This document shows positions 1 to 63,334 of a DNA stretch of 64,000 nt, one piece after another; position 1 is the first letter of the stretch, and each line of letters begins with the position of its first letter. The notes beneath the pieces were generated by a model. The model was not told the origin of the DNA, did no database searches, and saw nothing but the letters and a program-made list of their open reading frames with translations. Origin of the DNA: Raillietiella orientalis. Its lineage: Eukaryota. The position numbers and the translations under genes are program-made. Location of the stretch: assembly GCA_036172245.1 (NCBI GenBank), contig JAYWIR010000040.1, positions 1,860,001 to 1,924,000 of the forward strand, read 5' to 3'.

Positions 1-199
1 ATGCTTGAGGGGATCGGTTTCCATCATTGGAAAAGAAACATACGTGCAATTTGTATTTGGAATTAAGATGTTTCATGGTAAACTTTCATTTACACACAAA
101 AGGGATTTCTTTCAGGAACTTAACAACATACGTCCATTATGGATGGCTAAAATTACATTACTTGAAACTAAAACAGAAATATGATTAAACACTCTGCAA

Positions 200-530
200 A
201 CTGTAAGCAAATTGCGTTATTTTGTTATGCAAACTTTTGCGATCCGAGGGAGAAACTTCAAGTACTTTATTTACAATACACATTGACCAAATGAACTTCG
301 CACCTTTTATGTATCTACTTATACGACTAAGGAAATGAAAATTATTTAAATACTAGCTGAAGCATTCTTTTTGCATGGACTTTACTTTTCCCATAATATT
401 GCCTTACAGATCAAAACGATCAAGATCATTCATTCATTTTTAACCTGTGGACAACTTGTTATATGTAAAATTCAACTGAGCAATATGTGAGAACTCATCC
501 CATAATCGTGGACGTGTTTGTAAACAGAAC
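200..530 (-). CDS. Partial multi-exon gene with tiny introns, possibly F-box (FBXO33/39-like); boundaries approximate
   Basis: Removing GT-AG introns 403-444 (42 nt), 353-385 (33 nt) and 265-303 (39 nt) gives an open frame RPRLWDEFSHIAQLNFTYNKLSTGNIMGKYLNNFHFLSRISRYIKVLEVSPSDRKSLHNK. The F-box-like call rests only on weak recalled similarity (PRLW; FLSRISRYIKVLEV). Confidence 0.3.
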
Positions 531-1499
531 TCTTCGACGTTGAACGATTCGAAGAACTAAACCCACTTTGCGCCAGCAAAGCTTGCTAACCTCGAAAACG
601 CGTTCGATGTTTGGAAGCAATAATTTATATTTCATTTGAAATCGATATTATTCGAAATCATAATGTCACTTACTAAAATAAAAAAACGTAAGAATATGGA
701 GCTAAAAGTTGTACAAGACGAACAGAATGAAAATTTTAGGCTATATCTTACGTGCTTTTAATCAATACCCGTCAAGTCGCAAGTTATTTTCCATACATCA
801 CAACAGTTACGCAGCTTAGTTTAGTAATTTTTTCTTGTTTATTTTAATACGGATTTATTTAAAGCATGAAATTCAAAATTAAAAACAATGGCTAGCAAAA
901 AAACTTATGCAAATCACATACACTGACATATTTTTTATGATACATATGCCTACTACAAAATAAGTCAGATCTACATTTTGTTGCATATTCAGATGAATTA
1001 TAAAGTCACAAAAATAAAGCAACGAAGCATAGAAAAATGCAATGACTCTAAGTATGATGCAAATAATTCACATAAGTATGCATAAATATATGCGAATAAA
1101 TCATAAGTACCTCACTACCTGATGGTTCCATATTTCTGTTGTATCCACAAATACATAAGCATTGCCTATAAGTGCACAACAGATCTTATGTACTGTAATG
1201 AGAAGAGACAGCACGTGAAGACTATATTTTCATTCTATTGATCTTGTAGCTCACATCCCCTAGGAATAGGAATTTCAAGACAATTTGTGTACATAAAATC
1301 GAGCTTATTACTAGATGTTGCCTGTCGATACAAAAAATCCCTGTTGATACAGAAAATGTTCTATACCTTTGTCATTAGTTATGAAAACAATTTAGTTAAC
1401 CCAGAAAATAAAAAATTCGTAAAAGAAAGATTTCATCGTTTAAATATTTACCATCTTTATAGCAATCTTCTAGTGTACCATAACATCATTGGGATACGC

Positions 1500-3430
1500 A
1501 CAACTTGTTTCATGCACTTGCAGGTTGTTCTTGTCATTACGAAGTTATTTCTTCATACACTGACTGTAAAATTTCCGTTTCCCATATCATGATAATTTAT
1601 TTCTTATACATGTCCTTGTCCTTTTGGATCTTTGAACTGTCACGAAAACAAATTCGATGAAATTTTCATTTCTGTAGTGCATTTACAGTTCGGGAATCGA
1701 AGTTCTATTTTGGTAACAAAAAAATATGTGCTCATTCAGAAAAATAAAAACATATGTTCTGGGTGTTATATTTCTCCTATAAGTAAGTTATATTCCTTAC
1801 TCCGAGGTCTCTAATGAAATTCTGGTAAATAGATTTATTAAACACGATTTATACATTTTGTTGCTTGTTCCTACTGAGATTTTGTATTATTCTATTTTGG
1901 CAATACGGAACAATTTGCAGCTTCTATAAATGATATCCAGTGTAACTAGATTCAAGAGCAAAAGCCAAGAGGAAACTTGTTATATAGCTCACTATAAGAT
2001 TTTACGGAAATACGATGACATCAGAACAATTATGTGCTACAGCTTTGTGCTCTTTGATCATATGAAAATATGCACCAAGTAATAAGTCTTTACACTTACA
2101 ATAACTCAGTTTCCACTCCATTACTGTATGAGAACTGATTACAACATTCTCCGTTCTTGGTTTCTTCCATTTACGAGAAATATTTTATTCATTCAGGTCT
2201 CCTGGTCGCCGATCAGTTTCAGCCTTCTTTACACTTGAGCACTAACAAAAGCACCAAGCTGTTGTATGCATCGAGAGCTTAACTTCCTGGTGTGAGAACT
2301 CAGCTATTTTCTGCTCCTTTGTGGCCTTTTTCCGATGATGTTGTGCTCAATGATCTTAATCATGGGTTCTAATTGAAAAGAGGATGAAATAGTGGTTCCC
2401 ATACAAACCTAATCCTAATCCTCCACGGCAGCAACACCTAATCCTTGTTTCTGAGGTTGGCATTAGCGGACAGAGGGGAAGCATGACATTAATAAGCAGA
2501 TGTTAGGGAGGAATGAGATAGAAAAAAAGACAAGCAAAGTAAAGGAATTAAAGCAAGATATAATTCCCCTGAAAGGATGAAAATATTTCGGACTTGAATA
2601 GAAAGGATGAACAAAGGTTTGCCTTTGGGAGTGCGTTACCTACTATGGAATAAACTTTCCCAAGATGCCTACCACATGCATGAAGAGAAACGTTTTTATT
2701 TTCACACTTGCCTTCTGTGCAACGTGTGCGAAATATCATCAAAGACGGATGAGGTTTTTTCGTTTTCTTAGCAAGACTACGAATATCAAGAGTGTAAAGT
2801 TAATCGTATGAAATTGATGGAGTAAGCAGTATCTACAAACATCTATAACATGTATATTTGTGGGAATAACAAGTTATATTCCATAACTGCAATAGTTTGT
2901 TGAGGATATGAGATGCAGTTTACAGAAAATCTTCATTCAAAAGAAGTAACTTCCTGCAGTATGATGTGTCGGGAACCTGTTAGCCCAAAGGAGAAACTGT
3001 GTCCTCATCTCAAACGAGGCGAAGCAAGTTGGTTATTATATTCACGTAATATCGTCCAACTATGCTAATTCATTTCCAAGGTATCCAAAATCATACCGAT
3101 GCTACCTGACATTGACTTCTTCTTGTTAATCGAAAGAACAGGCATAATTTCCCAGATGTTAAGAGAGTCAGGGAAGTAAAAGAGCTTACATCAGAGCAAC
3201 CTTTTCTCGATCGGTCTGTCTTGTGCTTTTTTCTAAGCACAAGTGTTTTTTGCTGTACTGTCTCAAAATTTGCCATATTCTTGACAACATGACTAGGTAT
3301 TCGAAGAAAGATCTAGGCTGTTCAACCTCGGAATCATAGATTTTCTTTGATGTTTAATTTTGTAAAATACTTTGTCCTGCTCTTGGTGATTTTCTCGTTG
3401 TTTATTGAAACCGAACACATCTGGTAAGAC
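1500..3430 (-). CDS. Probable multi-exon gene of unknown product, divergent from ARL1; exon structure unresolved
   Basis: Open stretch at about 3190-3340 ending at a strong GTAAGC donor (about 3189), with several further short GT..AG candidate introns. No consistent full model could be built. Confidence 0.25.
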
Positions 3431-3736
3431 CTAAAAAACAGCTCAATAAAAATACTAAATTGGGGGTCTTTCATGGAATAAAACTTTTATAAATCATTCA
3501 GATTCCTTATAATAGCGTATTTTGAAAGTTATCAATTTACACAACACAAATCTTCATTACTCAAAATTCATAAGGCTATTTAGATTTCAGTGTAAGAGGA
3601 TGGTAACACTGAATGCTAACGTGTTCTGTACTTTGGAGTGAGGAATGGAGCATCACTTAAATGGGAGCTCAAAAAACATTCGAATATGGATAACTAGTCA
3701 TTTTGTTGTCCCTTGAGAACTCCTAATCGTGTTGTT

Positions 3737-4714
3737 ATGGGTAAAAGTATTTTTTCATGTGAAACGCCTTTACGACATATTATCAAGTAACAAAATTTTT
3801 TTGTATAATTTTTGTTCTGGCTATTTTTGAACTGTAATAAAAGTAACTGGCACCAACCGCTTTTCATGCAAAAATCAGTATTACTACCTATAATTGATAT
3901 GTTATTTAATATGAAGGAGGCCTGCTGAGCTATCTGAAGAATTTATTTGGAAGTAAGGAGTTGAGGATTTTAATATTAGGATTGGATGGAGCAGGCAAAA
4001 CCACTATTTTGTATAGGTAATTAACTGCTATTTTGAGTCATATCTACAATTGAAGTGTTTGAATTGATCTAATTAAAAAAGATTGAAATACATTGTCATG
4101 AGTGTTCATTTTGACAGCTAAATTGTCATGTATGATTACACAACTGTGAATTGGCTTATTAAGTCATTTGAATGTTTCAGAATGCAAGTTGGAGAAATTG
4201 TAACTACAATTCCAACTATAGGCTTTAATGTTGAGCAAGTTTTGTATAAAAACCTGAAACTTCAGGTTTGGGATCTAGGTGGTCAGACTAGCATACGGTG
4301 ATAATTTACCCTATTTACTCTTTCATTATATTCGTTATTTAGACCTTATTGGAGATGTTATTATTCAAATACTGATGCCATTATTTATGTCGTTGATTCA
4401 GCAGATCGTGAACGTATCAGCGTTTCCAAACAAGAATTAGTATCTATGCTCGAGGTAACTTTTTAAAAGGTTTCAATCTTTTGGTTTTGTAATTTGATTT
4501 CAAGGAAGAAGAACTGAAATCAGCTGTTCTGGTTGTTCTTGCAAATAAACAAGATTTAGAGGGAGCAATGACAGTAGCTGAAGTTCATCAATTTCTTGGT
4601 CTGGATGCACTTAGAGGTCGTACATTCCAAATTTTCAAAGCTTCAGCTTTAAAAGGAGAAGGATTAGATGCTGCATTAGAGTGGTTGTCCATATCTTTGC
4701 AATCGCGAAAATGA
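3737..4714 (+). CDS. ARL1: ADP-ribosylation factor-like protein 1, 180 aa, 5 coding exons: 3737-3740, 3917-4016, 4181-4297, 4343-4454, 4505-4714
   Basis: Spliced translation [55 protein letters not shown]...[31 protein letters not shown]...LANKQDL...[10 protein letters not shown]. Shows the myristoylation Gly2, P-loop [18 protein letters not shown] and the ARL1-typical [12 protein letters not shown]. All introns are GT-AG (176, 164, 45, 50 nt); exons sum to 543 nt. Confidence 0.97.
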
Positions 4715-7465
4715 TCGAGTGTCTGGAATATAAATATTATACCCTTTTTTTATCAATGAAGTAAGTTTTTAAAAGTTTGACAAGCATTTAAGTGATATTT
4801 GCAGTGCGGATTATTTATCTCTTAAAGCTGAATACCATTGTCTAACTTGTTTAAGTTTGTTGAGTGAAAAAAACTGAATTATAAGAATAAGAAATATAAA
4901 CAGACCAGTTATTAATTAATCAATGCTAAGGTAGAATATTTAGTAAAAGGGAACATTCAGCTGGAGCAGAAAGAGCTTGTTTACGGAAGAGAAAAAGGTA
5001 AATATAGAAATTGCAGAATTTATGCAGGAAAGTAAGGACTGAAATTCAGATGATATTGAAAAAGATTCTATTTTTTTGTCCTTTTTTTTCCATGTTTCTA
5101 TGTTTGATCTTCAATATTTGGATTGTTTAATGAGTTAGCCTAATTTCTTGTTTAAGTGGTTTTCATTAGCATTTGACCAATTAAATATTTTAGCTGTTTC
5201 GAGGAAAATCTGCCGGGAGAATTCCTTTTTTCATTCATTTTTTTTTTTTTTTTTTGCCATTATCAGTTCTTTGTAAGATCATTAGTTTCAGCAATATCTA
5301 ACATAATTATTGAAGTTTGGAATTTTAAATGAACTGGATTAATGTGATTTTCGATTTTCATACCTATTGCATTTTTATCTTATGTCATCCAACATTATAA
5401 TTATATTCTTTTAAAACAACTTTCCAAAAGACTTTCCAAAGAGATAAGATTTCCAAAGCAGATGATTAGGAACTGAAGTATTTTCACATGCCAAGTCTGA
5501 TAATCCAAGTAGATTTCTTGAGAATCACTCCTGTTATTTTTCTAGTTTAAGAGTTCTTTCTTATCATATAAAAACTACACCAATTTAGGCTTCAGTTGTT
5601 GTTTTATTAGTGTTTCAATGTAAATGTTTGCGGGTTTTTATTTGCGCATTTTAATTATGCACAGGCCCTTTTAAGGCATCATTTTTTTGCACAATGTTAC
5701 TAAATTTTGTTGTCTTTCTTGAAGGGGCATGACACACATTAAATTTGTTCCATTTAAAGCTGATAGTTGTAGGTTCAGAATCTATCTCTATGTGCATCCC
5801 TACATAATCTGTAATGTCCCAGAGTAGAATAACCTCATGTATGTAGATGCATGCAATTTGTCATGCATACATCACCCACTGTTTGTTCTTGTGTAACTGA
5901 CTTACCCTTTCTATATTGCACAAGTAGAAAACCAAGCATGGTAAATCTGGAGAGGATGGTGGAAAGTTTATGTATTAGTCCTTGTTATGTGATTTGTTGA
6001 CCAGAAAGATTCTGAACAATATGGCGGAATGGAAAAAATGATCTTGAAAAATGTCGTTTCTTTAATCATAGGCACAGCAGATGGTGTTAAGGAAGTTAAA
6101 CTAACGTTTTCTTTATGCTTTTTGAAGAAAAACATTTCAACTGACAGTGGGAGCTGATGCCAACCCAGTGAATTATTTTGACAGATGCACTTATTTCATG
6201 AAATGATGGTGATTAGTAGTACTATACTACAGTGCACACATTATCTCAGTTTATGCAGTATTTCAGCTTGAGAATTTTCATCTGACAAGATAATTTAGTT
6301 GTGCCTAATCTGGATCCCATCTAAAACCACTCCAGATGAAACATAGTAGTCATTTGTTTTTACCTGTATGCATTAGCAGGGAAATCATGGTTTCCAGAAA
6401 GCATCTTTCAAGATTTGATGTAGTCTATTTGCTACTAATTCCTATCACGTTTTATTGTCATATTGGGTCTTGATGACTTCAAATGTGGTTACTGCTGCTG
6501 TAATGTTGCCATGGTTCTTCATGTGCTGTTTGCTTTTTTCTTTAAGTGCATTTTGACTGTATAATGTGTTTCAAGTGTGATCTCAGTTTGTCAGTCAAGG
6601 TGTTGATGTAAATCACTTCATTGTACTTGCTTGAGCTGCCTGAAAGACAGGTTTTCTACTGCAGCGTTGCTTGCATATTGGCAGGCCTACTGTCATTTGA
6701 ACTTTCAAAACCACTATGGATCCTGAGTATCTGCCCTGCTCAAGAGTTGAATGTAATTACATTGCATTACAGCTGCCTGCATATCTTAATTTGTTCTGAT
6801 CCAAACATTGATCCCAGAAAACGTAAATCATCCATTACACCATGAGAACTTGTTCGAACATGAAACTGCAAGTAATTTCTTAAATGGTCTTTAGACTGGG
6901 TAAATGGCCAACTGCGATGCAGTTAATGGATTTCTTTTACAAATAGACTTGGAAAGTTACCAAAAGTGTTTCTTTTCAACGTTAATTTGAATTTTATATG
7001 TTACACACTTTAAGAGTTTTCTGTTTCGGATTTATTTCAAAGAAACGGTTCAGGTGTCGGCTCCTTTTTTGCCATCTCGCAAAAGTATTCCCGAGGAGGA
7101 GTCTCGAATACCAATCAGGCATTTTGGGGGTACAGATTCATATTCCTTAATACTAGAATAAAATACCAACATTAGCGTGGACCGTTTTGACTCGGAAGTG
7201 CGGAAAATTTTCAACAAATTGGCCAAAAAAAAAATGAAATGGCAATCCACGATTCCGTTTTTGTTAATTCTCACTTTGTGGCATGCTGTTTTTCCATTCA
7301 AAATAAAGAGAATCTCCGCGTGGCCGAATTCAAAACAATAAAAAGAATTTTAGTAGACGTAAATAAAAAGAATCATAGGTTGAGTGGGAGACAGAAAAAA
7401 TAAACACGTATAGGGACTGAATTCGGAAGTACACATTGAATTCATAAGAAATTGGTACTACCGTC

Positions 7466-9192
7466 ATGGCAGAAAACATGTGCAGACAGAAAAGAGTACA
7501 TTGCTTTTATATCGCTGCATTCCATTGCAGAGTCCTTTTGCAAAAGTGGGAGGAAATCACACTAGAGGAAATGCTATCTCTGCATGTAATGTTAAGGATT
7601 CAAGTTCATGGCATTGGTCATGGCTACGATAAAAAAAAAAAAGCCTGTTTTCAGCATTAATGTGTTATCGAAAATTACAATGCTAACGAGGCATGGAAAC
7701 CTCGAAGGAGGTATTGCATTTCCTGGTGATTGGATGATAGTTTTAGGTGCCGGATTTCTGGTTTCATTCATCAGAGCGCCGTGTTTTGTTATCTTTAGAA
7801 GTTTTCGAATCAAATTCTCGTGTTTGTTTAAATTGAGTGACAAAAGGGTTATCGGACGAGGTGCTTTATCAGCACCTGTGATCAATGATTTCATCACTTT
7901 ATATTAAATGATTTATTTTTGAACGCTCTGTTTGTATTCTGCATTTGCGTAAAAAGTACATTCGTAATCGTTACATCCATCCGTTTATTCGCAGATCCTC
8001 AATTCGTACTTATTCGTACCTTCTTAAAGAGCCATAATCTCACTGTTAGCTTTTAATCGAAGAGTTCAGTAAATTGGGTTGAAATGAAAGACAGTCTGGA
8101 AGTTGCGATATTGCTTGAGTAAGAAGGAAGACGTATGTAACGTACTGCCGAAAAGTAACACTTAGCATCTGCCTGCAAGAACTGTGGTTGTAGAGATGGC
8201 AGTAGTAAATTCGAACATTCTTCGGAAAGATCAACTATATTGATGCTCAAAGCAGTTGCTAATTCGTTGCAATCTCACAAGGAATTTCCTCTTGTCAGAC
8301 GTCCATTGGTCATCCATAAAATCGAATGATTTATAGATTTCGACCAACGATTGGATTGCTCACTGTATTCATTTTATCAGCTTCCATCTTCAATTCTATC
8401 CCCCTAATCGTATTGATTATCAAAGGAGAATGCCGTTGCTAATGACTGCAAGGAATCGTTGCTTACAAGTTGCAAGTTTTGCTGCGTGCACACAGGCAGG
8501 AGGTATAATCTGATTTTCGGAATCTCAGTGTGTTCCTAGGAGTATTTGGTTTCTTACTAGAAGTACCAGTTCCATATGGCTTTATGTTACATATGCCATG
8601 GTGCAATTCTTTCCTCTGCGGCAAGCGATTGCCATCGGCTTCTCTCTCCTCCTTTGGCGGTGCTGCTCAGGAAGTTTGTTGGAAGTATGTCGACTTGATG
8701 TTGCATTTTCATTTTCAAAAGTCAATTCTCGACAAATATTGCATTCCTGCTTCAGTTGCCTACAGTGATGTAAGACATCAGGGTATTCCCTTACGTGTAC
8801 GCATTTTAGCTTTCGTTTTATGGGCTTTGTAATCATAAATGGGGTGATATATGCATCACGCATATACCAGAACTCTGTACAGGGAGTCAGTACGCACACA
8901 GAAACGCTTGTATCTGCAAACCATTGCAGATGGGTAACAGAAGGACATCAGTTGAAGGAATGCCTTTTCCTGAAGATACCTGATGAAATTATGAGTAATT
9001 TCGAACTGCATCCGTTTTGCCTCTTTTGATGAATTAAATGCACTGTACAAATGTTTTTACAGGTTAAGAATGTTCCTCTAGGGTGTTGGTGGCTTATTAC
9101 TGAAGTCGGTTGCTCATGAAGGTGCATACTATCCTTGGTGGAGCAAAAAGATGGAACGCCCGAGTGCAGATTTTGAGCGATATTTGAATTAG
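7466..9192 (+). CDS. Multi-exon gene of unknown product with short introns; 5' part uncertain
   Basis: Exon 8381-8502 (FHLQFYPPNRIDYQRRMPLLMTARNRCLQVASFAACTQAG) joins in phase across the 37-nt intron 8503-8539 to GVFGFLLEVPVPYGFMLHMPWCNSFLCGKRLPSASLSSFGGAAQEVCW. A likely last exon at about 9082-9192 reads GVGGLLLKSVAHEGAYYPWWSKKMERPSADFERYLN*. Confidence 0.5.
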
Positions 9193-9329
9193 AAGAATAA
9201 GAGTAACTGAAAATGAAAGAATACCAAGGTGGATGAAGTTTCTGAAATTTCCTTGAAGTCCATGTGACACCTTGGACGGTCTCCTTCGCAAGAAGTGGGT
9301 TTTGGTACTTGCATACAAATCACAAGTGT

Positions 9330-12300
9330 TCCTAAGGCTTATTCTTCAAAAGCATATTCAGCAGGTCAACATCGGATTTTTGACTTGCCTCTTTTGTTTG
9401 TTCTCTTATCTGACTCTCGAAGGCCAGTGTTATTTCTGAGATGTTTTCTATGCTTCGTCTAGAGAACAGATACCATAATTTGCAAAATCATACCCCTAGA
9501 CTTTTGATACCATTTTCCTGGACGATCAGCTGGGGTTATTTTCCGAGAACTCCTATCTGTGCATATCTTTGTTGTTTCAAGTGCCTTGAATTTTGCAAGC
9601 ATCAGCCACTACTGAAAACTGAAAAGGAGGAGCTTCCTAATGCTTCTTCCTGCGCTTTCTTCATGACTTCTGTTTCTACGATAGGTGGGTTACTGGGAAT
9701 AGACTGGATACGCCTGTTAGAAAATACAAGAAGCTTTTCTTGCTGATACTCAGAACTTGGTCCTCATGGGATTCGTGAAATCACTTGAGAGAGCATGTCC
9801 TTAATATCTTCAGATGATTGTCGGAGATCGAGTTGGAAGGAGCATGAGATCAGAGACTCTTTTTTGCCTTTGACGATATCGGTCGCGATCCACGTCGATT
9901 AGTCGATCCTGCCAGCACGAAGGATCTTGGTATTTCCTTGGCCAGCATGCTCTCCTTTTTTCCGACACAATCTGTTTTTTTTGCGAACGTGCTTTTCTGC
10001 ATTGGATCCACAGATTTTTCCTTTCACCTTTCATTTCTCTCTTGACATAGTGATATTCATTCATACTGATGTTACGCAGAGCTTCTGATGCTTGACAAGT
10101 GAGCGTTGTGATTCTTACAGCGTCTCATCGCGACTCTTGCTTTTCATGTTTTCAAATCGAAATACTGTGATTAGATCATTTGAAATGCTTTCTCTGTTAT
10201 ATCTCTGGAGTTATTAATTGAGTTTCCAGAAGATACGAACATTCCTGGATGGTTTCTGAAAAGTCTAAACTTCTGATCCCTTCGATGGTTCTCAGGGATG
10301 AAGTTCGGTGGCTCCTCGTAAGGACGCTCTGGTTTCGTTTTTGACCGTGTATCATGCTCTTCATCAGGGAGTAAACCGAATGTCAGCTTTCGCGAAAGTT
10401 TAGCTCAACAAATTTCAAGCCGAACCCTTGTTATCTTCATCATCAACTCCATGTCAGCGTAGGAGCTGTTCCAAAGTTTGCTCGTTGTTTCAATCCGAAC
10501 AGCAACTTCTCCAGACAGTTAGTTGCCTTACCCGAGTAGACGGCGTTATTCGTTAGCATTAGAGAAGAGGTATTAGAGGTTCCTACACACCCCATTGCTT
10601 CCTGAAAGAAGGGCAGAATACAGCGTTTGAGAGCACTTCACTTTTCTGATATTTACGTATTGAATGACAATCGAATGTTGCATTTCACCTTCTCTTGAGA
10701 TGCTTAGTGTGTATTTTGAAATGTTTGATTGATTTGAACAGTATTCTTTTCCTCCTTTCAGTTTGGACATCTTTCATTCCAAAAACCATTTTCACATTCC
10801 TGTAGTTCAGTCATTTTTTCCGGTTTTCCCCATTGCTGTACAGCTTGCAAGTTCATGTTTAACTTGTTGAAAACTGAGCTCTCAGGAATAACAGCAACCT
10901 CCGAAAGTCAATCATCGTGAGATGGACTTTTGAATTATTACAGATTTTCGAATGTAAATTCTAAATTAAACCGATATGGTTTGTAGTTTGTCCGTAAAAC
11001 AAGTGTTTCGTGCAGACTTTTGAAATTTTTGGCTCATTCTATGTATCGCAAAGAATTTCGAATGGAGGGTAATTAATTATTGGTCTGATCAGAATGACTT
11101 CATATTGCTGAGTTTTTTCAGGACTCATCATTTTTCGACACTTAAACTTTGGTTGAAAACACATCATAACAACCTAATTCTGCAGTTGATTGGTATCAGA
11201 TACTCAGCAGAAATCTTTGTACAAGATGATCTGTGCAGTCTCTGTCACTAATCACAATTCAGAATCCGGGTTGATAGTCGATTTGACCAAGTGTCCATCA
11301 ACTTTTCCCAAACATTCAGAATTTGTGAATTGTGGATCCAAACGTCATTGTGTTTAGCCATTATGGCGATATGATGGACCAAAGTACACAATGGACGTCA
11401 GATGTTTAATAAACAACAGATTATTGGTTGTTTTGGTGCCTGGCGAAGAAATACAGAGAATGTTTTTCGAGAATTTTCTTAGAATGTTTATAGTGCACAG
11501 AACAAAGATTCATTAAGAAACCAGTTAAAAAGCAGGAAAGATTCAAAGAAAAATAGACATCAACACAAGCAAAGCTGCCAAGGGGCGAGCTGGAGAGGGA
11601 GCAATGCACCTTCAAAAAGTAAGCAAATGAAGGGATATGTGTTGAAGATAGTTACTATTTGTTGACTACAAAGGATGGCTATATGCACACTATAAGATCA
11701 ATGTAAAGTATGCAAAAGATAATTAAGACAAGATCCCCACCGTGAAGTAAGTTGTGCTTCATGTGATCATGGAAACATTGCTTTCGGGTAGAATTCTTCT
11801 GCAGTGGATCACTAATAAGATTAAGGACTTCTAAATCACTATGTTTTCCTAGTTGAGAAGAAAGTGCTTCATTCCATTGATGTTTGAATATCATGGGCCA
11901 ACTGGAGCAATTTATTCCGGTTCAGCTGCTGATTTTTATTCTGAAAGTAATCAAAGTGGAACAGAAACAATCTCCAAACTGGAATAGAAGTGGTTTCCAA
12001 AGTTTGAATAGTTCGAGAGGTACTTCATGTCTATTAAAAGTTCCATTTTTCTGGAGGAACCCCATTGATGGAAAGACAGGATTGCTTGCTTTCGTGATGG
12101 GGTAGGAAACATGAGCCAGAATGCGGGGTCATTTAGTAAAAGAGGAAAACAATACATATGGACCCAACCTTGAGATTGCTGTTTCCGCTGCGAATTCCAT
12201 TCGAAGATGGAATGGTCATCCTCTGTTTTCTGTCTTTATGTTTCCTTAAAAAAAAAAAATGTATTGCTTAACAACAACACACTTTAACTATTGAAAACAG

Positions 12301-13130
12301 AAGACAAACAGAAGACTCAGTAATGTATCTCAAGAACACAAGATGCAATACACTTTTAGTACGATTGGCAAGGCTTCGGACGCGTTTTAGCACGACCTCT
12401 TGAAAGTTATCAAGAAACTCGGATGTAATATGCTTCCTAATGCTAATGGACTGCCAGACATTGTATTTATGATAGGTTAAATCTGAGCCTTCGAGTAGGT
12501 TAGATGAATGGGTTCCAGGAATAAGAAGAAATTAGTTAGTAGGTTTTCTTTCGACATAGGAACACTTCTATAGGAGTTCTGTTTCTTCAGAATATATTTG
12601 TGTTAAGATTATCATTCTCTTCTCTCTGATGAAGGATGTTTGTGATTTCGCAAATTGATTTTATTTTGAAGTACTTCCGTAATTTAAGAGTGAAATTCAA
12701 ACCATTCTTAATTTCAAACACGATGCAAGAGAATTTCCATAATTCCAGAAAAACTTATGAAGGGAATATATAAGAGATAAGTAAAGTACTGATATGTTTA
12801 CTGTTACATTCTCCAAAAAGTGAAATGTTCGACGCTGAGGAACTTTATTCTTTTACTTGTTCAAAAATCTTTAGCAGGAGAGCTTTTTTTCAGAGAAATA
12901 TCTTCAATATGTAATACCTCTTGGTTTTATGTGAGCCATTTTTAGAGATCGACAGCTTATGTTCTCTGAAGATCAAATAAAAGTGTTCCTTGTGTGTTCT
13001 CCGGGCTGGAAATAAGATGCTTTTTATGAGGATGTGACACGAAGCTTCTCAAAGACTCAGTAATCTATCTCGGGAATGCAAGATGCAATGTGCTTTTAGT
13101 ACGATTGCGTCTGTTTGTGCTTGGACATAT
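9330..13130 (-). CDS. One or more probable multi-exon genes or decaying genes, product unknown; structure unresolved
   Basis: Several protein-like open stretches flanked by splice signals, e.g. RSIENISEITLAFESQIREQTKEASQKSDVDLLNMLLKNKP* (about 9333-9458) and RIQSIPSNPPIVETEVMKKAQEEALG (about 9640-9712), interrupted by stops that I could not all explain with introns. Confidence 0.25.
12312..13107. repeat. 56-bp imperfect direct repeat: 12312-12367 and 13052-13107
   Basis: aagactcagtaatgtatctcaagaacacaagatgcaatacacttttagtacgattg vs aagactcagtaatctatctcgggaatgcaagatgcaatgtgcttttagtacgattg; 48/56 identical, ungapped. Confidence 0.9.
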
Positions 13131-16083
13131 TTTGAACACATGTTTCTAATTTTTAACGAATTTTTTGTAAATTTGAAGTCATAATACTACTTCAAATGAC
13201 ACTTTTCTCTAAAATTTACTAGACCCTTGCTTCAAGTAATACGAGGAGGGTCTTGGTGCCCCCACAGAGTTGCTTTGTTATCAGTCTCATCTCCAGAAGA
13301 AAAGAGTTTGCCATCAGTCTGAAACATGAGTTTCAAGAGTCTTCGTAACGGGAGAGAGAATATGTAATCAATTTATTCTTAAAAAGCTAGAATATGGAGT
13401 TGTCACTTTTCCTGTTAATCTATAGTCTTTTCCTCCAAGAACTCTTCGCACTTGAAATTTGCTGTTTTTTTTTTATGTGTTCCAGTGTTTCAGCAGATTG
13501 CTAGTGAATACCTTTGGCTTCCTCGTTCTCTTGTTTTGAAGCATTAGTCTAGATAAAATTGCAGTAATTGGAGTTTACTAAATATTTCAATGTCACACTT
13601 TGAAGAAAAAACAGCAATAGAAGTTTCAGTAAAAGATGTGATGCAGCAGTTTTAGATGGTCGACTCCACAGTTAATAGGTGACGTGAAAGTGCTATGTTA
13701 TGCTATGTTTACTGGTACTTCAATATTTGACGATTTAAATATTGAAAGCACTTAATGATATACAATAATCTGAGGTCAAAGAAAGTTCGGCATCCTTTAT
13801 TCTCTGATTAAGAACTTATTTAATGAAACTGAATTTCAAAGTATTTAAGGATCATACATTATATTCACGTATTACATAAACCCGTACGTACATATATGTG
13901 TTTGTGTGTGTATATGTATTAGGTTTTCTCTAATGTCACTCTTTCTACTAGACTATTACTAAACTATTGTAATCTGTCACTACATTAGGAAAATTATCAA
14001 ACAGTCACGTCTTTTCTCTCCTAGGAATTTCATGCCATTTAGTACAAAGTAACAAAATATTTGCATCGTGTAACGTGATAGGGCAAGTATTTCATTTAGG
14101 AAACCATTGTGAAAACATTTCACCGTTATCTGACGCTTTGTCTTTTTCAAAAATGTCGGGTGCTCAGGCACTAGACAAAAACTTTGCACATTTGATTGAA
14201 CAATTATGAGTAAAATACACAAAATACGGATGATTAGGAAAAAATATATAAGGAATGTATGCTTTAACAGGGTTTTGGAAGTTCCAAAACGATGAGTAAG
14301 TTATAATAACGAGTCAAGGAAACATGCACAAGTAATGTCTTGTGCATCTTATATTGATTTTCGTACAGAAACCACGGTAGTCTGGCTCCGAATCACTGTT
14401 AAAGGCAGTCACTTAGCAGCCTGTGATTCCTACAAAACATCTCAAGCTGATTTTGCTGTGAACAGTACATTTCCTTAAATCCTGTAAAGCCAATCCTGTG
14501 GTGATGTGTTTGAGTGTTGCATCCCGAGTTTTGAAAGATATGAATTTAGAAAAATTCTCAAGCGCAGTATTGGCATATTTGCATATGACAAGAGACATAG
14601 AACACAGTGTCTAATTCCATTAGAACTATATTTTCCATAAATTTAATAACAGCCTACTTATAGAAGCCAAAAAATTCTCATAATGTAACCAACAATTTTA
14701 ACAGTTATGAAGGTATATAGAAGTCCAGAATGCTAATGTATAAGGAAAACAAACAAACAAGCACCCTTGTGCTACCTAATACTCGTTCTACTATAGATTG
14801 AATATTAATGTTGGTGTTCTGTGAACAGTATTATACCCAAAGTCTGTATGCAAATTTTCCCAGTTAGCGAATATCAATGTTTGAATGACATGGAAAAAAG
14901 AGTTCATACAAAAACATTCTTCAAATGGATTGCAATTCGGTGTTATTCAGAATTCCTCTCAATTTGAATATCGAGCTTTTTTTAACACATAAGCTTGGGT
15001 ACAAATCCAGGTACCGACATCTGGTGTATGCTGCTTTTTACGAAGAATGTCATCTGAACGGACTTTTTATTCTTTGGTTTCTATTCAGGATCATTGTACC
15101 ACCTTTCCAGTCTGAAAAGTTGAAAATTCAGCTCTCAATTCTCTTCGATATAGGTACATGTAATAAGGCTAATCGTTTCATTCAACCATCTAGAATATCG
15201 AGACTTCCATATCAAAGTTTGGATTGTTTTGTTTTTTTTCTCCATATCTCAAATCAAAATCATCGACGAAATGGTATTGCAAGCCTGAATCTGTGTTGTG
15301 AAAAACCTTTCCTGCGAAACTGGTAACATGTGCTTGTGTATGGATATTGGTACAGTGTGAACGACAGTACGCTCCAAATCTGTTTCTGGATTAACGAGTT
15401 TGCTGTTTATTTTTTCCTCGACAATAGCCGTAAGGGTTTTGGCACATAATTTTTGCCTCTGACTGTCAATACTGAAATTAAGAAAAAACAAAATCTTCTT
15501 GGATGCTTTTATGTTATATGCATATTTGTATGGGTGAATGAGCCCTGATCCGATAACGTTCCCATTTTATACTCCGCTTTGGTGATTGGTAGAGTAAATT
15601 AGAAGTCAAAATGTTTTCACTCGCTGTTCACGTAGCTCATGTGAATGTTGAATGGTATCATGTTATTCAAATGTGAAGCAGTACAATGCAACTATTTGCC
15701 ACAAGTGACGTTTCTTTCAGTGCTCCATGCTCCAGTTGGTAAAAAAACTGAATCTAAGAAGAGGATTCCAGATGTGCAAATTATGGTATTATAATAGCTG
15801 TGAAGTATTTATTAAAAGTCTTAAGTAGGTTGCCAAGTTCGGCAGCATATGGAGCATCTGCTGTGCTGTTCTTTGTTCATGTGACAAGTCTGGAAAACTT
15901 AATTTTTCAAAATGTGCCTAAAATTAGGCGATCGTAAGTGTTTCCTATGTATGGTTTTCATGCTTTTGGTTTTCCCCTTTTCAGATCATCATCGTAAGAT
16001 GTACATTAAAAAATCAGTCTAGAAATACATTATATTGTTACATATTTTGGAATTCTAAATTATTTTCTTGCAATTTGTTAAAT

Positions 16084-16242
16084 TCAATCTTTGATCAAGT
16101 TCTGGATTTCGGTTTTTGCATTTCTTAATAATCTATACGTTTGGAATTCTTTGCCACCAATACAAAGTATATAAATACTAAATGCTGCTAGGCCAATGCC
16201 AGAAATCTTAAGGACTTTTTTCAGTTCCACTTTGGGTTTCAT
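16084..16242 (-). CDS. 52-aa single-TM microprotein, tentatively SMIM11/FAM165-like; overlaps the PIGBOS1-like ORF by 35 nt
   Basis: MKPKVELKKVLKISGIGLAAFSIYILCIGGKEFQTYRLLRNAKTEIQNLIKD*: basic N-terminus, one hydrophobic helix, charged helical tail. KVL..LAA..ILC..G.K.FQ..RL resembles SMIM11 as recalled. Confidence 0.55.
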   Translation of the reverse strand: MKPKVELKKVLKISGIGLAAFSIYILCIGGKEFQTYRLLRNAKTEIQNLIKD

Positions 16243-16369
16243 TTGGAAAATCCAGGGTGTATTTTGTTGAATAGAATTCTCTCAGTAAAGGTATTGTGAT
16301 ATAGTATCCAGTAATGACTCCAGCGATGACAGCAATGTACAAATCAGTTTTTCTCAATCTGTGAAACAT
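16208..16369 (-). CDS. 53-aa single-TM microprotein, PIGBOS1-like
   Basis: MFHRLRKTDLYIAVIAGVITGYYITIPLLREFYSTKYTLDFPNETQSGTEKSP*. Length and pattern match human PIGBOS1 as recalled (MFRRL..Q.L.A.V.G..GG.YI..P). A strong tttcag acceptor lies at 16415-16420. Below the 60-aa ORF-track cutoff. Confidence 0.7.
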   Translation of the reverse strand: MFHRLRKTDLYIAVIAGVITGYYITIPLLREFYSTKYTLDFPNETQSGTEKSP

Positions 16370-19300
16370 CAGCTACTGCAGCAAGTGGACTAAAATAAGG
16401 CATCTAGTCGCTAACTGAAAGGAAAATTAATGAAAACTTTCAGGTGGTTTCATTTCATTTAATACAAGACTTTTTTGTCTTACTTTTTGCACAGATACAT
16501 GCCTATGCAAATAATTCATTTCCTTGAGGATATTTGTTGCCCACATTTAACAAATGGTGAAAAAACAACTATTCTATCAGAACCAAAGGAAAACAGTACA
16601 AAGTACACACTTGAAACAATAGGGCATCAATTGCAAACTATGCACAAGAGGATACCATTTGCAATTTCTTGCCTGACTCGAACTGTAATCAATTAAAAGA
16701 CTGATATGTCAAATGTGACGACAATCATGTAATCCTACGTCGCTTACACAACTGTAAAAAATTTTTTTAAAATTCTCACAGCTTACTCTTCAATGGACTT
16801 CGCTAAGGAGATCTATTGTCGAATGTACAATAATCCCACCAGAAAAATCTCAGCCGATTCCAGTCACGAAAAAAACCTCATCAGACATAAGGAACGATTG
16901 CTAAACGGGTAGCCGAAACGAACATTTTTGCAAAGGCACGTTTTCCTGGCAAGAAGTTTCATGAATCGTTTAGCAAGCAGTGCTACCAATTCTTCATGAA
17001 TTTATAAATAAAGTAATAATGACACAAATATGATGATAATTTTAAATCAAAGAAGCAGTTGACAAATGAACTGAGACAGCTCAGGAAAATTGATGCATTG
17101 TTATCATTAATTAAGACGCAAAAATGAATTGCATCTGAAGATTCCTCGCATACTTTGAATTAGGTTTCAGCGCATGGAATTAACGTGGAAATTCGGTACA
17201 ACCGCTGGTACACAAGAAAGTGTTAGAATTACGTGGTCTCTTGTTACATGCAGTGATGCACTTAATAGATGGGGGTAAATCAAGGAAATTTGATTTGAAA
17301 GACGATTAATTGGGAATTCACATTTTAAAAAGTAAATTTTCCGTATAGTTATCTGGAAAATTTTGATTGTAGAGAATTTCTCCAAATGTAACTGTAATAA
17401 ATAATTATTGTATTGTATTACGAGCATGCTTTCAGCACTTGAATCATTTAGTCGATTTTGGATTTCAAGCTCTGAGTTACTTTTTTCTGCTAATAAATGA
17501 TGAAGTCTCAGTACTAACTTCCACGAAGTTCAAATTTAATCCGTGATGATTAAAAAAAAATTTGTTCCATAGTTCTAGTCATTGTGACTTAGAGCATTAC
17601 ATCCACAAAAAGTGAAAATTTTGTAGAAGCAATCAACCTACGTATGTTACACATGCTATATTAGGTTGTTACCTCCAAGTTAGTTTTCTAACCTGTTCGC
17701 TAGAGATTGTTGGGAGGCGGATGCTTTTAAGATAAGCCATGACAAATTTCCGGATTTATTTATCATATTTTTTAGATTCTAAAAGGTTCCTGTGAAAATA
17801 ATTCTCTCAAAGAAGCGGAAAACGATTTAAATCAATAAATAGTTTATCTCTGGAATGATGATTTCTATATCCGAAATGGAAGAACTAAAGAGGAATAGCA
17901 GTGCAGTTGAGATGGAAGCATGAACAGCGACAACACTTAATTTTGCGGACGAATATTGTTTTCGGTAAAAGTGTTGCGAGGTGTGCACTCTTGTGCACTG
18001 CTGTCATGCTCCTGTGTTGGGAGACTGCATGCACTGTGTAGTGCAGCGTTTCCCAAACTATGTTCCGCGAAAAGTCGATAAGTGTTCCGTGAAAAATTAT
18101 GGACATTAATATATTTTAAATGCTGCGCCCAGTTGAAATATGTTTGAAACTCAGGCACCCCTCACTTTGTATATCAGCTTTTTACTATTGTGCCTGATAT
18201 CAAAAGAATCTGTGATTCAAAGACCTCAAAACATCGAAGTCATTACACACGTAATTTGACTATATATACGCTAGTTTATTTTACTATTTTCATGTGTTTT
18301 GCTTTGCATAATTCAAATTTGAGAATAAACGTCTGTTTTGTTTTCTGAACTCTTGTATTTACTTGCTTAATTAATTTATTATTAATGTCAACCTACCCTA
18401 TAAAATAACCAAGGTATTTCGTTAGCATTTCAGGATTCGTGAAGTGTTCCGTCATGGGAAAAGTTTTAAGAGAAGCTGGTGTAGTGTATACATTGAATGG
18501 AGTATTGAATTTGGCTCTAGTAATCAGCTGTTTGGCTGGAAACGCAGAGCGGCTGTGGAAGAGAGAATTTTCCAAGTGGCCCACAAGTTAAGAACGTGCC
18601 ACCACGAGGTTCTTTGGCATTCTGGAGGCTTCAATCCCTCAAGTCAAGGATCATCTACTATTCTCAACCACTCTCGGAATGATCCAGCCCCGCACCCTCC
18701 CGCAACTCCTTGGACTCAGGACTGGAGGCGTATCCCATTTCCAAATAGGCAAACCAGTAGTCTTGTGTGCAAAGATAATTTACTTTATCTTTTTATGTGT
18801 AGTTGCACATGCCAGTTCATCGTATGTACCGTCTGCGTCTCTCGCGTGCTTCCCATCTTGCGGGCATCATCAGTGAGGTCCCATTGCAAGTAGATTCCTC
18901 GATGAATCAGTGAATGACTGCAACTCATGAGCAAGCGGTGATGGATGTTAGGTATTATGATCTCTCTCAGCAACGTTGGCAGCTTTTTCTTCACGTGCCT
19001 CCCGTTTCCTGTAAAATGTTCTCATCAGCTTAATTTCTGCGGGGACCTGAGTAAAATCCGAGCGGGCCTGGTGGCTCTCGTCTCGGTTACCACTGTGAAC
19101 CCTTACCTCAGCTCACCTCCTTAGGTTGGTTTAAAGTGCTCGCCTTGGTTGTGCTTATGACCCACAATCAGCCAGCGAACAGATAAAGAAGTTTCGAGTG
19201 CCTTCTTCATTCAGTCTTAGCCCTTTGTATCCTAAGTCGCGTCGTTAGGGATCGTAGCGCGTGTAAGACTATGGAGGGTCAGCCTCAATGATGGACTCTG

Positions 19301-20257: not shown

Positions 20258-20980
20258 GTTCTGCCAGGTCGAACCGCAACGAAAAGAACGGCGGCCAACC
20301 GCCTCACATGCAAAAATCCGTTCCGCTACCTGCAGTCCATGTGCTGTCGAATAGGAAGCAGACATGCCGAGCTCATCTGCAGAAGTAGGGAGAGGAGCAT
20401 TTTCATGGGAGGATTCGATGGAGCAGGCAAAACTACCATTTCGCATAGGTTTTGAGTCATATCTACAATCGAAGTGTGCGAATTGACACGACTGGAAGAC
20501 TTTCACTGGCACGTGTGTTCACGTTGACAGCTGACCTGTCACGTGGGATTGCACAACTGTGAATTGGCTCGTCAATGCTTCCGGATGCAATTTGCATGAA
20601 TTGTAGCTGCCGTTCCGACTACACGCTTAAATGTTGAGCAAGTTTTTGAAAAAACGGAATTCGAAGAATGGGGAACATGAAGAGATCACGTATTGATGGA
20701 TCGATGCTGAGGTAGAATATTGAAGGAGATAGAAACATTCAGCTGGAGCGGAAAGTGCTTTTTTTTTTTTCGGGGTTACACAAGGGAAGGAGGGAGGTAG
20801 TCATGGAAATCTTCAAATTCATGCAGGAAAGCAAAGGACTGAAATTCGGATGATGTTGCAAAGGACTGAAATTTTTTTTGCCCCCTTTTTCTGCATGTGC
20901 TCACGTACATTCGAATCCCACCAGGGAAGAATTCGACCCCCAGAAATGGGTGCTTCGTGGGTTTCGAGTCTCCCCCTCAG
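20258..20980 (+). pseudogene. Unprocessed, internally deleted ARL1 pseudogene (DNA-level duplicate of about 3814-4258 plus 4869-5360)
   Basis: Aligns by eye to intron 1, exon 2 ([14 protein letters not shown]), intron 2 and part of exon 3 (..aatgttgagcaagtttt). It then jumps to ARL1 3' flank sequence (atgctgaggtagaatatt..aacattcagctggagc). Splice sites and reading frame are destroyed. Confidence 0.92.
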
Positions 20981-61627: not shown

Positions 61628-63334
61628 TCATCCGAAGATGCGCCCCTTCGGCTGGCAGGAGCAGTTGGACCCGAAGAAGTTGCAGCGGCAGTAGTACCGG
61701 GAGCAGCACCTGTGAGGGTGGAAGTCGCACCTCTCGCCGGAGCGCATGCAGAAGCGTCTGAAAAAGAGAGAAAGGAGAAGGAGGATCACTACAAACTGGT
61801 CTCCACCTTCCCATTGGGGTGATCCCCTTTCCTCTTCCCTCTCCGGTTTCCTTCTTCTCCCCTTGGGGATGTGTGCATCCCGGCAAGGAAGGTTTCGCGT
61901 ACGAAACCTTTTCTCCTCCTCCCAGCGACCGGCCGTGCCAGAAGGTGAGTGAACAAGGAGAGGGAAGGGAGTCAAGGAAAGACGGATGGGCCTTTCCGAC
62001 CACGCCCTCGCTTCTCCTCGCGTCGACGAACCGTCCCGATTCGGAGAAAAGAAGTGGAGGGCAAAGCGAGCTCCCACCCACCCTCCTCCGCATCATTGCA
62101 GTCTCCAAAGGAGATCTCTCCGTCTCCGATCTCCTGCGTCTCCACGAGTCTGCCATCCCTTGGTCCCGTTCCGCCCGCCCCAGGGAGGGTAGCTCACGCG
62201 AAACGAACCGCCTCTGGTGGGAGGCGTGCCGGAGCTCTCGCCCCTTTCTGGTGGTTCACTCGATGGTCTTTTCCTGTGCCCTTCCTCTGTGGTCCACGCA
62301 AGAAAACAACAAACCCTCGTCCCACGGGGAGACCCAAGTCGGCGGTCCTCGAGAGCATCCTTCCTCCCCCCTCCCTGAACTTCCTCCATAGGAGCGGACA
62401 GGATGCGCCGAAAGCTCCGGCTGCGCTGAGGAGGCTGAGAGATGAAGGATTGCATCTCTCTCCGGAGGGTCGATCACAGTCCTTGCCGTAGGTTGTTGGA
62501 TCGTCCCTTTTCAAAGAGACCGAGGCTTCAGATCTGACCTTTGCTCTAAACCAGGGAGTGGAAGACACGCCCGCTCTATCGGCCCGAGGAAAGCGCCTGT
62601 GGCAGCAGCGATTCGGAAGGTGGAGGCGGAACTCTTCTTGCCTCTGCAGCTTTCGATCTCGTTGGTCCGTTGGAGATCTCACATTGAAGAAGCCGATCCT
62701 CCGGGAGCTTGAAAGGAGGCTTTTCAAGGACGAACAGTTTGAGGTCACGGTTCCCGGGGGGCATAGAAGCGAGGCGAGGGGACGGATCAGCCTGAAACTC
62801 ATGGCAGGCGAAGTCGATGGACCCATCGCTTCTAGCGCACGCCACACGGGAGGCTGGGAGAAGCCACGAGTCGCCATCATCCACTTATAGCCTCCCTAAC
62901 GGAGCTTTGTTGTCTGGGACGCTTTCGGCGACACTACGCAACCCGTGGGCGAAACGACGAAACTTTACGGACACATGGCGTCTTTCCGAGCACACTGGGG
63001 TCTCACTCAACACGCTTCCTTCCGAGTCACGCCCGCACAAGAGACGTATACTCACTTACTTGTTGCCGATGATTTTCATCAGCTTGTAATAGAGCTCCTC
63101 ATCTTCATCCTCATCCTCCGAGGCGATGTCAGGGTTCGGCCCACCTGGAAGAGGAGACACCAATCAGAATCGATACCGTGAGCCGTCAGCGCGCGCCCTT
63201 CCGCCCCGTTTTCAACAGGGCAAAAGGAAGGAATGGCTGCTGGGCTCACCTGACTCATCTTCGTCGAGGGATGCGCCAACGATGGCGGACAGTAAGAGGA
63301 AGGCGGCAGCGGAGACCTGCACGCGCCGGTTCAT
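61628..63334 (-). CDS. Agatoxin-like ICK peptide precursor, copy 2, 99 aa. Exons 63334-63250, 63144-63060, 61757-61628
   Basis: MNRRVQVSAAAFLLLSAIVGA-SLDEDESGGPNPDIASEDEDEDEELYYKLMKIIGN-KR-FCMRSGERCDFHPHRCCSRYYCRCNFFGSNCSCQPKGRIFG*. Signal peptide, acidic propeptide, KR convertase site formed across the splice junction, 8-Cys ICK and C-terminal Gly. Splice sites are consensus (gtgagc, ttccag, gtaagt, tttttcag); introns are 105 and 1302 nt. Confidence 0.93.
62540..62650 (-). pseudogene. Possible decayed copy of an ICK mature-peptide exon, inside intron 2 of copy 2
   Basis: QEEFRLHLPNRCCHRRFPRADRAG aligns without gaps to copy 1 QERRCDHRPDRCCPNLFCRCNLFG (10/24 identical; Cys2 TGC->CGC). An upstream TGC sits at the Cys1 position if one base was lost. 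Confidence 0.4.

Follow-up and report, generated by a model that had tools for sequence, protein, structure and literature searches.

Within the 64,000-nt stretch of DNA analysed here (in the following called the window), a small ORF on the reverse strand is, judged from its sequence, a genuine PIGBOS1-family gene that has probably remained unannotated. A second ORF of similar length, located on the same strand, overlaps its 3′ end in another frame. The probable reading of this arrangement is a PIGBOS1-family smORF gene in which the second ORF is an untranslated or unselected chance ORF, situated in the transcript's AT-rich 3′ part. Such a gene would give rise to a 53-aa PIGBOS1-family microprotein, composed of a single membrane helix at the N-terminus and a polar tail, and the second ORF would most likely not add a second conserved microprotein.

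The ORF list was generated with the standard genetic code and contains ORFs beginning with ATG. The PIGBOS1-family coding sequence, called ORF1 in the following, occupies positions 16208–16369 of the reverse strand, stop codon included, and encodes 53 amino acids. The candidate second ORF, ORF2, occupies positions 16084–16242 of the reverse strand and encodes 52 amino acids; its stop-to-stop frame extends over 16087–16281. The two ORFs share 35 nt (16208–16242, reverse strand), which are read in two frames. Because the distance from ATG to ATG is 127 nt, ORF2 lies in the +1 frame relative to ORF1. The original prediction had described an overlapping pair of microprotein ORFs, and its coordinates, lengths, 35-nt overlap and different frames all agree with our ORF list. 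It had also assigned one TM helix and a charged tail to each product, and each ORF indeed possesses one hydrophobic window and a polar tail. The best 19-residue hydropathy window consists of residues 10–28 in both ORFs, with Kyte-Doolittle means of 1.81 (ORF1) and 2.07 (ORF2), and both begin with a basic N-terminus. The tail of ORF1 (residues 29–53) has a net charge of −1.

ORF1 had been called PIGBOS1-like beforehand, and both a Pfam score above the curated cut-off and the nearest neighbours in the Atlas bear this out. The match to Pfam family PF23670 (PIGBOS1), the sole Pfam family found for ORF1, scored 28.3 bits at a curated cut-off of 27 (E-value 1.9e-6), and the alignment joins residues 1–47 to profile positions 1–44 of 54, with Met1 at position 1. 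The same match recurred at 28.2 bits in a Pfam scan of 130 ORFs and is one of very few Pfam matches among the 260 stop-to-stop ORFs of at least 38 aa located between 1 and 20 kb of the window. The three nearest Atlas clusters of ORF1 are all PIGBOS1 clusters (scores 0.90, 0.89 and 0.88, with 190–195 shared features; recognition 3323), and 80–98% of the members of these three clusters contain PF23670. The taxa represented in them are Chordata and Basidiomycota. A word-index protein search yielded no word-sharing candidate for ORF1, a PDB search no match at E≤10, and a metagenome scan 311 pattern matches, none of which was confirmed as a relative. Because of its family match, ORF1 stands above chance. 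The mitochondrial outer membrane is the probable anchoring site of its product. This location, like the function, is assigned by homology.

Human PIGBOS is described as a protein of 54 aa with a TM segment at residues 7–29, which resides in the outer membrane of mitochondria and binds CLCC1 with its C-terminal region (PMC11837024). ORF1 resembles it in length (53 versus 54 aa) and in a profile match that begins at Met1. It also shares the single N-terminal hydrophobic segment (residues 10–28 in ORF1, 7–29 in the human protein, according to PMC11837024), followed in ORF1 by a polar tail. The two differ in their genomic surroundings. The original prediction had assumed a PIGB-type synteny, and this assumption was not borne out. 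Neither a glycosyltransferase-22 nor a Rab match, as expected for exons of PIGB or RAB27A, was found among the 260 ORFs of at least 38 aa between 1 and 20 kb, nor was either gene found among 150/151 ORFs of at least 108 aa between 20 and 64 kb, and short exons could escape the length limits of both scans. As there is no PIGB or RAB27A exon among the scanned ORFs, the ORF1 locus does not show the arrangement on the opposite strand of PIGB. The position opposite PIGB is the origin of the vertebrate gene name and not a trait that defines the family.

A further difference from the human gene concerns the host genome. An intact gene for an ARL1-like small GTPase lies on the forward strand at positions 3917–4714 of the window, with exons at 3917–4016, 4181–4297, 4343–4454 and 4505–4714; an ATG-bearing first exon was not located. 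Its last exon is closest to ARL1 chains in the PDB (72.7 bits), and its introns measure 164, 45 and 50 nt. With introns this short, the host does not have a typical vertebrate genome. The CpG observed/expected ratio is 0.68 in the AT-rich part and 0.81–0.88 in the rest of the window, and this range of 0.68–0.88, together with intron lengths of 45–164 nt, is unlike a typical vertebrate.

Looking upstream of ORF1, a candidate intron of 69 nt can be recognized on the reverse strand (16415–16483), with a GTAAGA donor at 16483 and a pyrimidine run followed by a CAG acceptor ending at 16415. The intron's length lies inside the span of 45–164 nt covered by the ARL1-like gene introns, and the acceptor-like motif ending at 16415 resembles the three acceptors of that gene. 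The exon start at 16414 contained in the original prediction is plausible as a candidate derived from this splice motif. An exon beginning there would include an upstream ORF of 19 codons (16344–16403, reverse strand) that covers the start codon of ORF1 out of frame and that counts only with this exon start. In the other direction, a hexamer scan detected no poly(A)-signal-like hexamer between the stop codon of ORF1 and that of ORF2. The first such hexamer beyond the ORF1 stop is AATAAT (16059–16064, reverse strand), about 20 nt past the ORF2 stop, and AATATA begins at 16036. Both lie within about 50 nt after the ORF2 stop, where the GC content declines to 0.17–0.23, and the sole canonical AATAAA starts at 15813. 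The limits of a transcript that would include both ORFs are putative.

For ORF2, the search for relatives returned 0 Pfam families at E≤10 and no word-sharing candidate in the word-index protein search. A phmmer search against 1.84 billion representatives gave a single match, a 494-aa protein (P0001) aligned over 24 residues in two stretches; this is a tandem-repeat protein, and the match was rejected as a repeat artefact. The only PDB matches, designed Kelch-repeat proteins, were rejected likewise, as their score is summed from 3–4 bits per repeat. In the Atlas, the best score of ORF2 was 0.83, with unnamed clusters (recognition 1851), and 598 pattern matches in the metagenome scan included no confirmed relative. 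We found no second copy of ORF1 or ORF2 elsewhere in the window. A BLASTP comparison of the two ORFs gave no alignment at E≤100, so they are not paralogues. A complex prediction for both proteins (score 0.02, mark 0.34) gave no answer and is evidence neither way.

ORF2 had been proposed to be SMIM11-like. SMIM11 (small integral membrane protein 11) is a small protein with one hydrophobic helix, and these generic features, small size and a single hydrophobic helix, are all that ORF2 has in common with it. The label is unsupported because ORF2 matches no Pfam family at E≤10, and with no credible homologue in any search, the 1.84 billion representatives included, we dropped the SMIM11 identity. 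The missing homologues are, in themselves, weak evidence against a functional ORF2, because ORF1 as a true family member likewise lacks a word-sharing candidate and because small unannotated ORFs are rarely deposited in protein databases.

How often an ORF like ORF2 arises by chance depends on the local base composition. The GC content of the first 18 kb of the window ranges from 31 to 41%, at roughly 34%. Both strands of positions 1–18000 contain 29 ATG-ORFs of at least 52 aa, and 8 of these 29 are TM-like, defined by a 19-residue hydropathy window with a mean of at least 1.6 (ORF1 and ORF2 are counted in both numbers). In a mock test, every position on the same strand was treated as an ORF end, and an ORF of at least 52 aa in another frame was sought that starts within a comparable span of 222 nt. 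About 11% of the mock ends had such an ORF, and for about 2.6% it was also TM-like. Dinucleotide shuffling of the 500-nt 3′ flank with ORF1 kept produced an other-frame ORF of at least 52 codons in 187 of 3000 shuffles. The forward strand of the same 1.5 kb contains ATG-ORFs of 65 and 49 aa, and a stop-to-stop frame on this strand (15928–16125) has a sub-threshold match to a transmembrane Pfam family. A crude score of codon-position composition, for which the ARL1-like gene served as training set, placed ORF2 above 38 of 44 background ORFs and ORF1 above 28 of 44; because the genuine ORF1 ranks only mid-field, this score has little or no power.

The joint chance of the ORF1/ORF2 layout is roughly 1–3%, calculated with thresholds that were set after ORF2 had been seen. 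ORF2 is not clearly above chance in AT-rich DNA, ORFs of its kind being frequent in this background, and we infer that it is non-coding. Several observations speak against the chance reading, namely that the ATG of ORF2 is the next one after that of ORF1, that the start context of ORF1 is poor and that of ORF2 better, that the two stop codons have no poly(A)-like hexamer between them and are followed by a drop in GC content, and that a TM-like neighbouring ORF is expected in only about 2.6% of cases.

These observations belong to the most probable of the rival readings, an overlapping bicistronic gene in which a PIGBOS1-like protein and a second single-pass membrane microprotein would both be made, the latter through leaky scanning to the next ATG or through reinitiation. 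We regard such a gene as rather unlikely. The fuller version, in which ORF2 would encode an unrelated single-pass membrane microprotein in the overlapping +1 frame of the same mRNA as the PIGBOS1-family gene and would provide PIGBOS1 with a co-expressed partner from a new family, we consider doubtful. No ATG occurs between those at 16369 and 16242. Among the 781 ATGs of the AT-rich part, 53 are followed by an ATG-free gap of at least 127 nt, and such a gap also follows 5 of the 48 ATGs that open ORFs of at least 45 codons, which corresponds to an empirical p of about 0.07–0.10. ORF1 starts in the context tagctgATGt, with C at −3 and T at +4, and ORF2 in ttccaaATGa. The former is poor, and the latter (CCAAATGA) is nearer to CAAAATG, which is given as the optimum for Drosophila (PMC9681215) and may not be that of the host. 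With its weak first start and no intervening ATG, the layout is compatible with leaky scanning. With an exon start at 16414, the upstream ORF (16403–16344) would stop 102 nt short of the ORF2 ATG, making reinitiation there possible.

The bicistronic gene is further favored by the poly(A)-like hexamers, none of which precedes the ORF2 stop, and by the chance of about 1–3% for a TM-like ORF of at least 52 aa at the position of ORF2, an estimate weakened by thresholds chosen when ORF2 was already known. It is opposed by the outcome of the Pfam, protein, PDB, Atlas and metagenome searches, which returned no homologue, family or related locus for ORF2, and by the abundance of ORFs of this size in the background. 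Moreover, such gene structures are described as relatively rare in eukaryotes (PMC9681215).

A precedent is the Drosophila pair sloth1/sloth2. Its frameshifted ORFs are separated by 5 nt, the first one has a Kozak sequence that is non-optimal, and leaky scanning was shown with a reporter assay (PMC9681215). According to the same source, the two are paralogues (27% similar) that are conserved across eukaryotes and whose shared transcript was demonstrated experimentally (PMC9681215). ORF1 and ORF2 resemble this pair as two close, frameshifted small ORFs on one strand with one predicted TM helix each, and in both pairs the first ORF has a non-optimal start context (PMC9681215). The differences are that ORF1 and ORF2 overlap by 35 nt, whereas the sloth ORFs are separated by a gap of 5 nt, and that the pair reported here is known from sequence alone. 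Nor are ORF1 and ORF2 similar to each other, whereas sloth1 and sloth2 are paralogues, and in contrast to the widely conserved sloth pair, ORF2 has no known relatives. A second comparison can be made with the human bicistronic mRNA RPP14/HsHTD2, which carries the coding sequence of a second protein in its 3′ UTR (PMC11837024). If ORF2 were real, both would have a protein-coding ORF downstream of the first; the downstream ORF of RPP14/HsHTD2 encodes a conserved enzyme with clear homologues, whereas ORF2 has none. In literature listings on PIGBOS1, bicistronic and Drosophila smORF context included, we found no hint that the locus of a PIGBOS1 gene contains a second ORF.

Two other explanations are far less probable. 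In one of them, ORF1 and ORF2 would be parts of one longer protein with two helices, either because the assembly has one base too many in a run of six A within the overlap (16216–16221, reverse strand) or because a 43-nt GT..AG segment is spliced out. This we consider very improbable. One A fewer in 16221–16216 would join the two frames, placing codons 1–51 of ORF1 in frame with codons 10–52 of ORF2. Long-read assemblies commonly contain errors in homopolymer length, and such an error could explain the run. The 43-nt segment lies within the overlap region, its length (1 mod 3) would shift the frame, and local introns are as short as 45 nt. Yet this candidate intron lacks a pyrimidine tract and its donor is poor, and excising it would delete half of the hydrophobic segment of ORF2. 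In addition, ORF1 is already typical for the family with 53 aa, compared to 54 profile positions aligned from position 1. The PIGBOS1 clusters listed in the Atlas range from 49 to 60 aa, and we found no PIGBOS1-like example with two helices.

In the other explanation, which is likewise highly unlikely, ORF2 would be real and would originate from a transcript or isoform of its own, through an internal acceptor or trans-splice site within ORF1 or a separate promoter, so that both proteins would not be co-translated. An acceptor-like AG at about 16290 precedes the ORF2 ATG by about 48 nt and, if used, would make this ATG the first one of the transcript. As for the bicistronic gene, we found no conservation support for ORF2 that would argue for such an isoform. 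Programmed −1 frameshifting was rejected, because the frame of ORF2 is +1 and the sequence offers no suitable slippery heptamer.

Several other parts of the window drew our attention independently of the PIGBOS1-like locus. At position 18600 the GC content jumps abruptly from about 34% to 50–60% and stays high for 45 kb (18600–64000). Within this block, no tandem repeats (TRF) and no Rfam matches were detected, and a knottin-like frame provided the only Pfam match among 150/151 ORFs of at least 108 aa. Strongly GC-biased evolution of this region or an assembly join could account for the block. It contains, at 20271–20898, a partial copy of the ARL1-like region 3829–5095, with an intron included and without 4252–4867, at 69–71% identity. 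Mismatches between the two copies are A/T in the AT-rich copy and G/C in the other at 101 sites and the reverse at 13. The two paralogous segments, 16 kb apart, are an example of strongly one-directional compositional drift. In this window, duplication of a segment was detected for the ARL1-like region only.

The knottin-like piece (61631–61780, reverse strand) forms the end of a 154-aa open frame and has eight cysteines spaced like in an inhibitor-cystine-knot. It matched Pfam PF02819 (Toxin_9) exactly at the cut-off (21.3 bits; E-value 3.5e-4, 150 ORFs scanned), and a word-index search found no word-sharing homologue. The match may be due to chance, or the piece may represent a knottin exon. 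In the AT-rich part, a segment on the reverse strand (12271–12531) weakly matches the HR1-HR2 domain of a retroviral-type envelope, with a score below the threshold (17.9 bits, cut-off 27). Near it, a 56-nt direct repeat with 86% identity is located at 12312–13107, its copies 740 nt apart, and both elements possibly belong to a decayed mobile element. On the reverse strand (8582–9319), a single stop codon separates two open frames, 121 and 123 aa long, that share the same frame. They coincide with a local peak in GC content (41%), and no Pfam match was obtained for either.

Read as a PIGBOS1-family gene followed by a chance ORF2, the locus contributes a probably unannotated PIGBOS1-like gene from a genome of non-vertebrate appearance. 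This is not surprising, because PIGBOS1 clusters span chordates and basidiomycetes. The locus also illustrates how easily AT-rich DNA yields TM-like ORFs of about 50 aa. The bicistronic idea is mechanistically possible and currently unsupported. If ORF2 were translated and conserved, the locus would be the second well-defined example of one mRNA from which overlapping or adjacent membrane microproteins are made. ORF2 would then be a candidate partner for PIGBOS1, a protein whose structure and oligomeric state are described as still open (PMC11837024).
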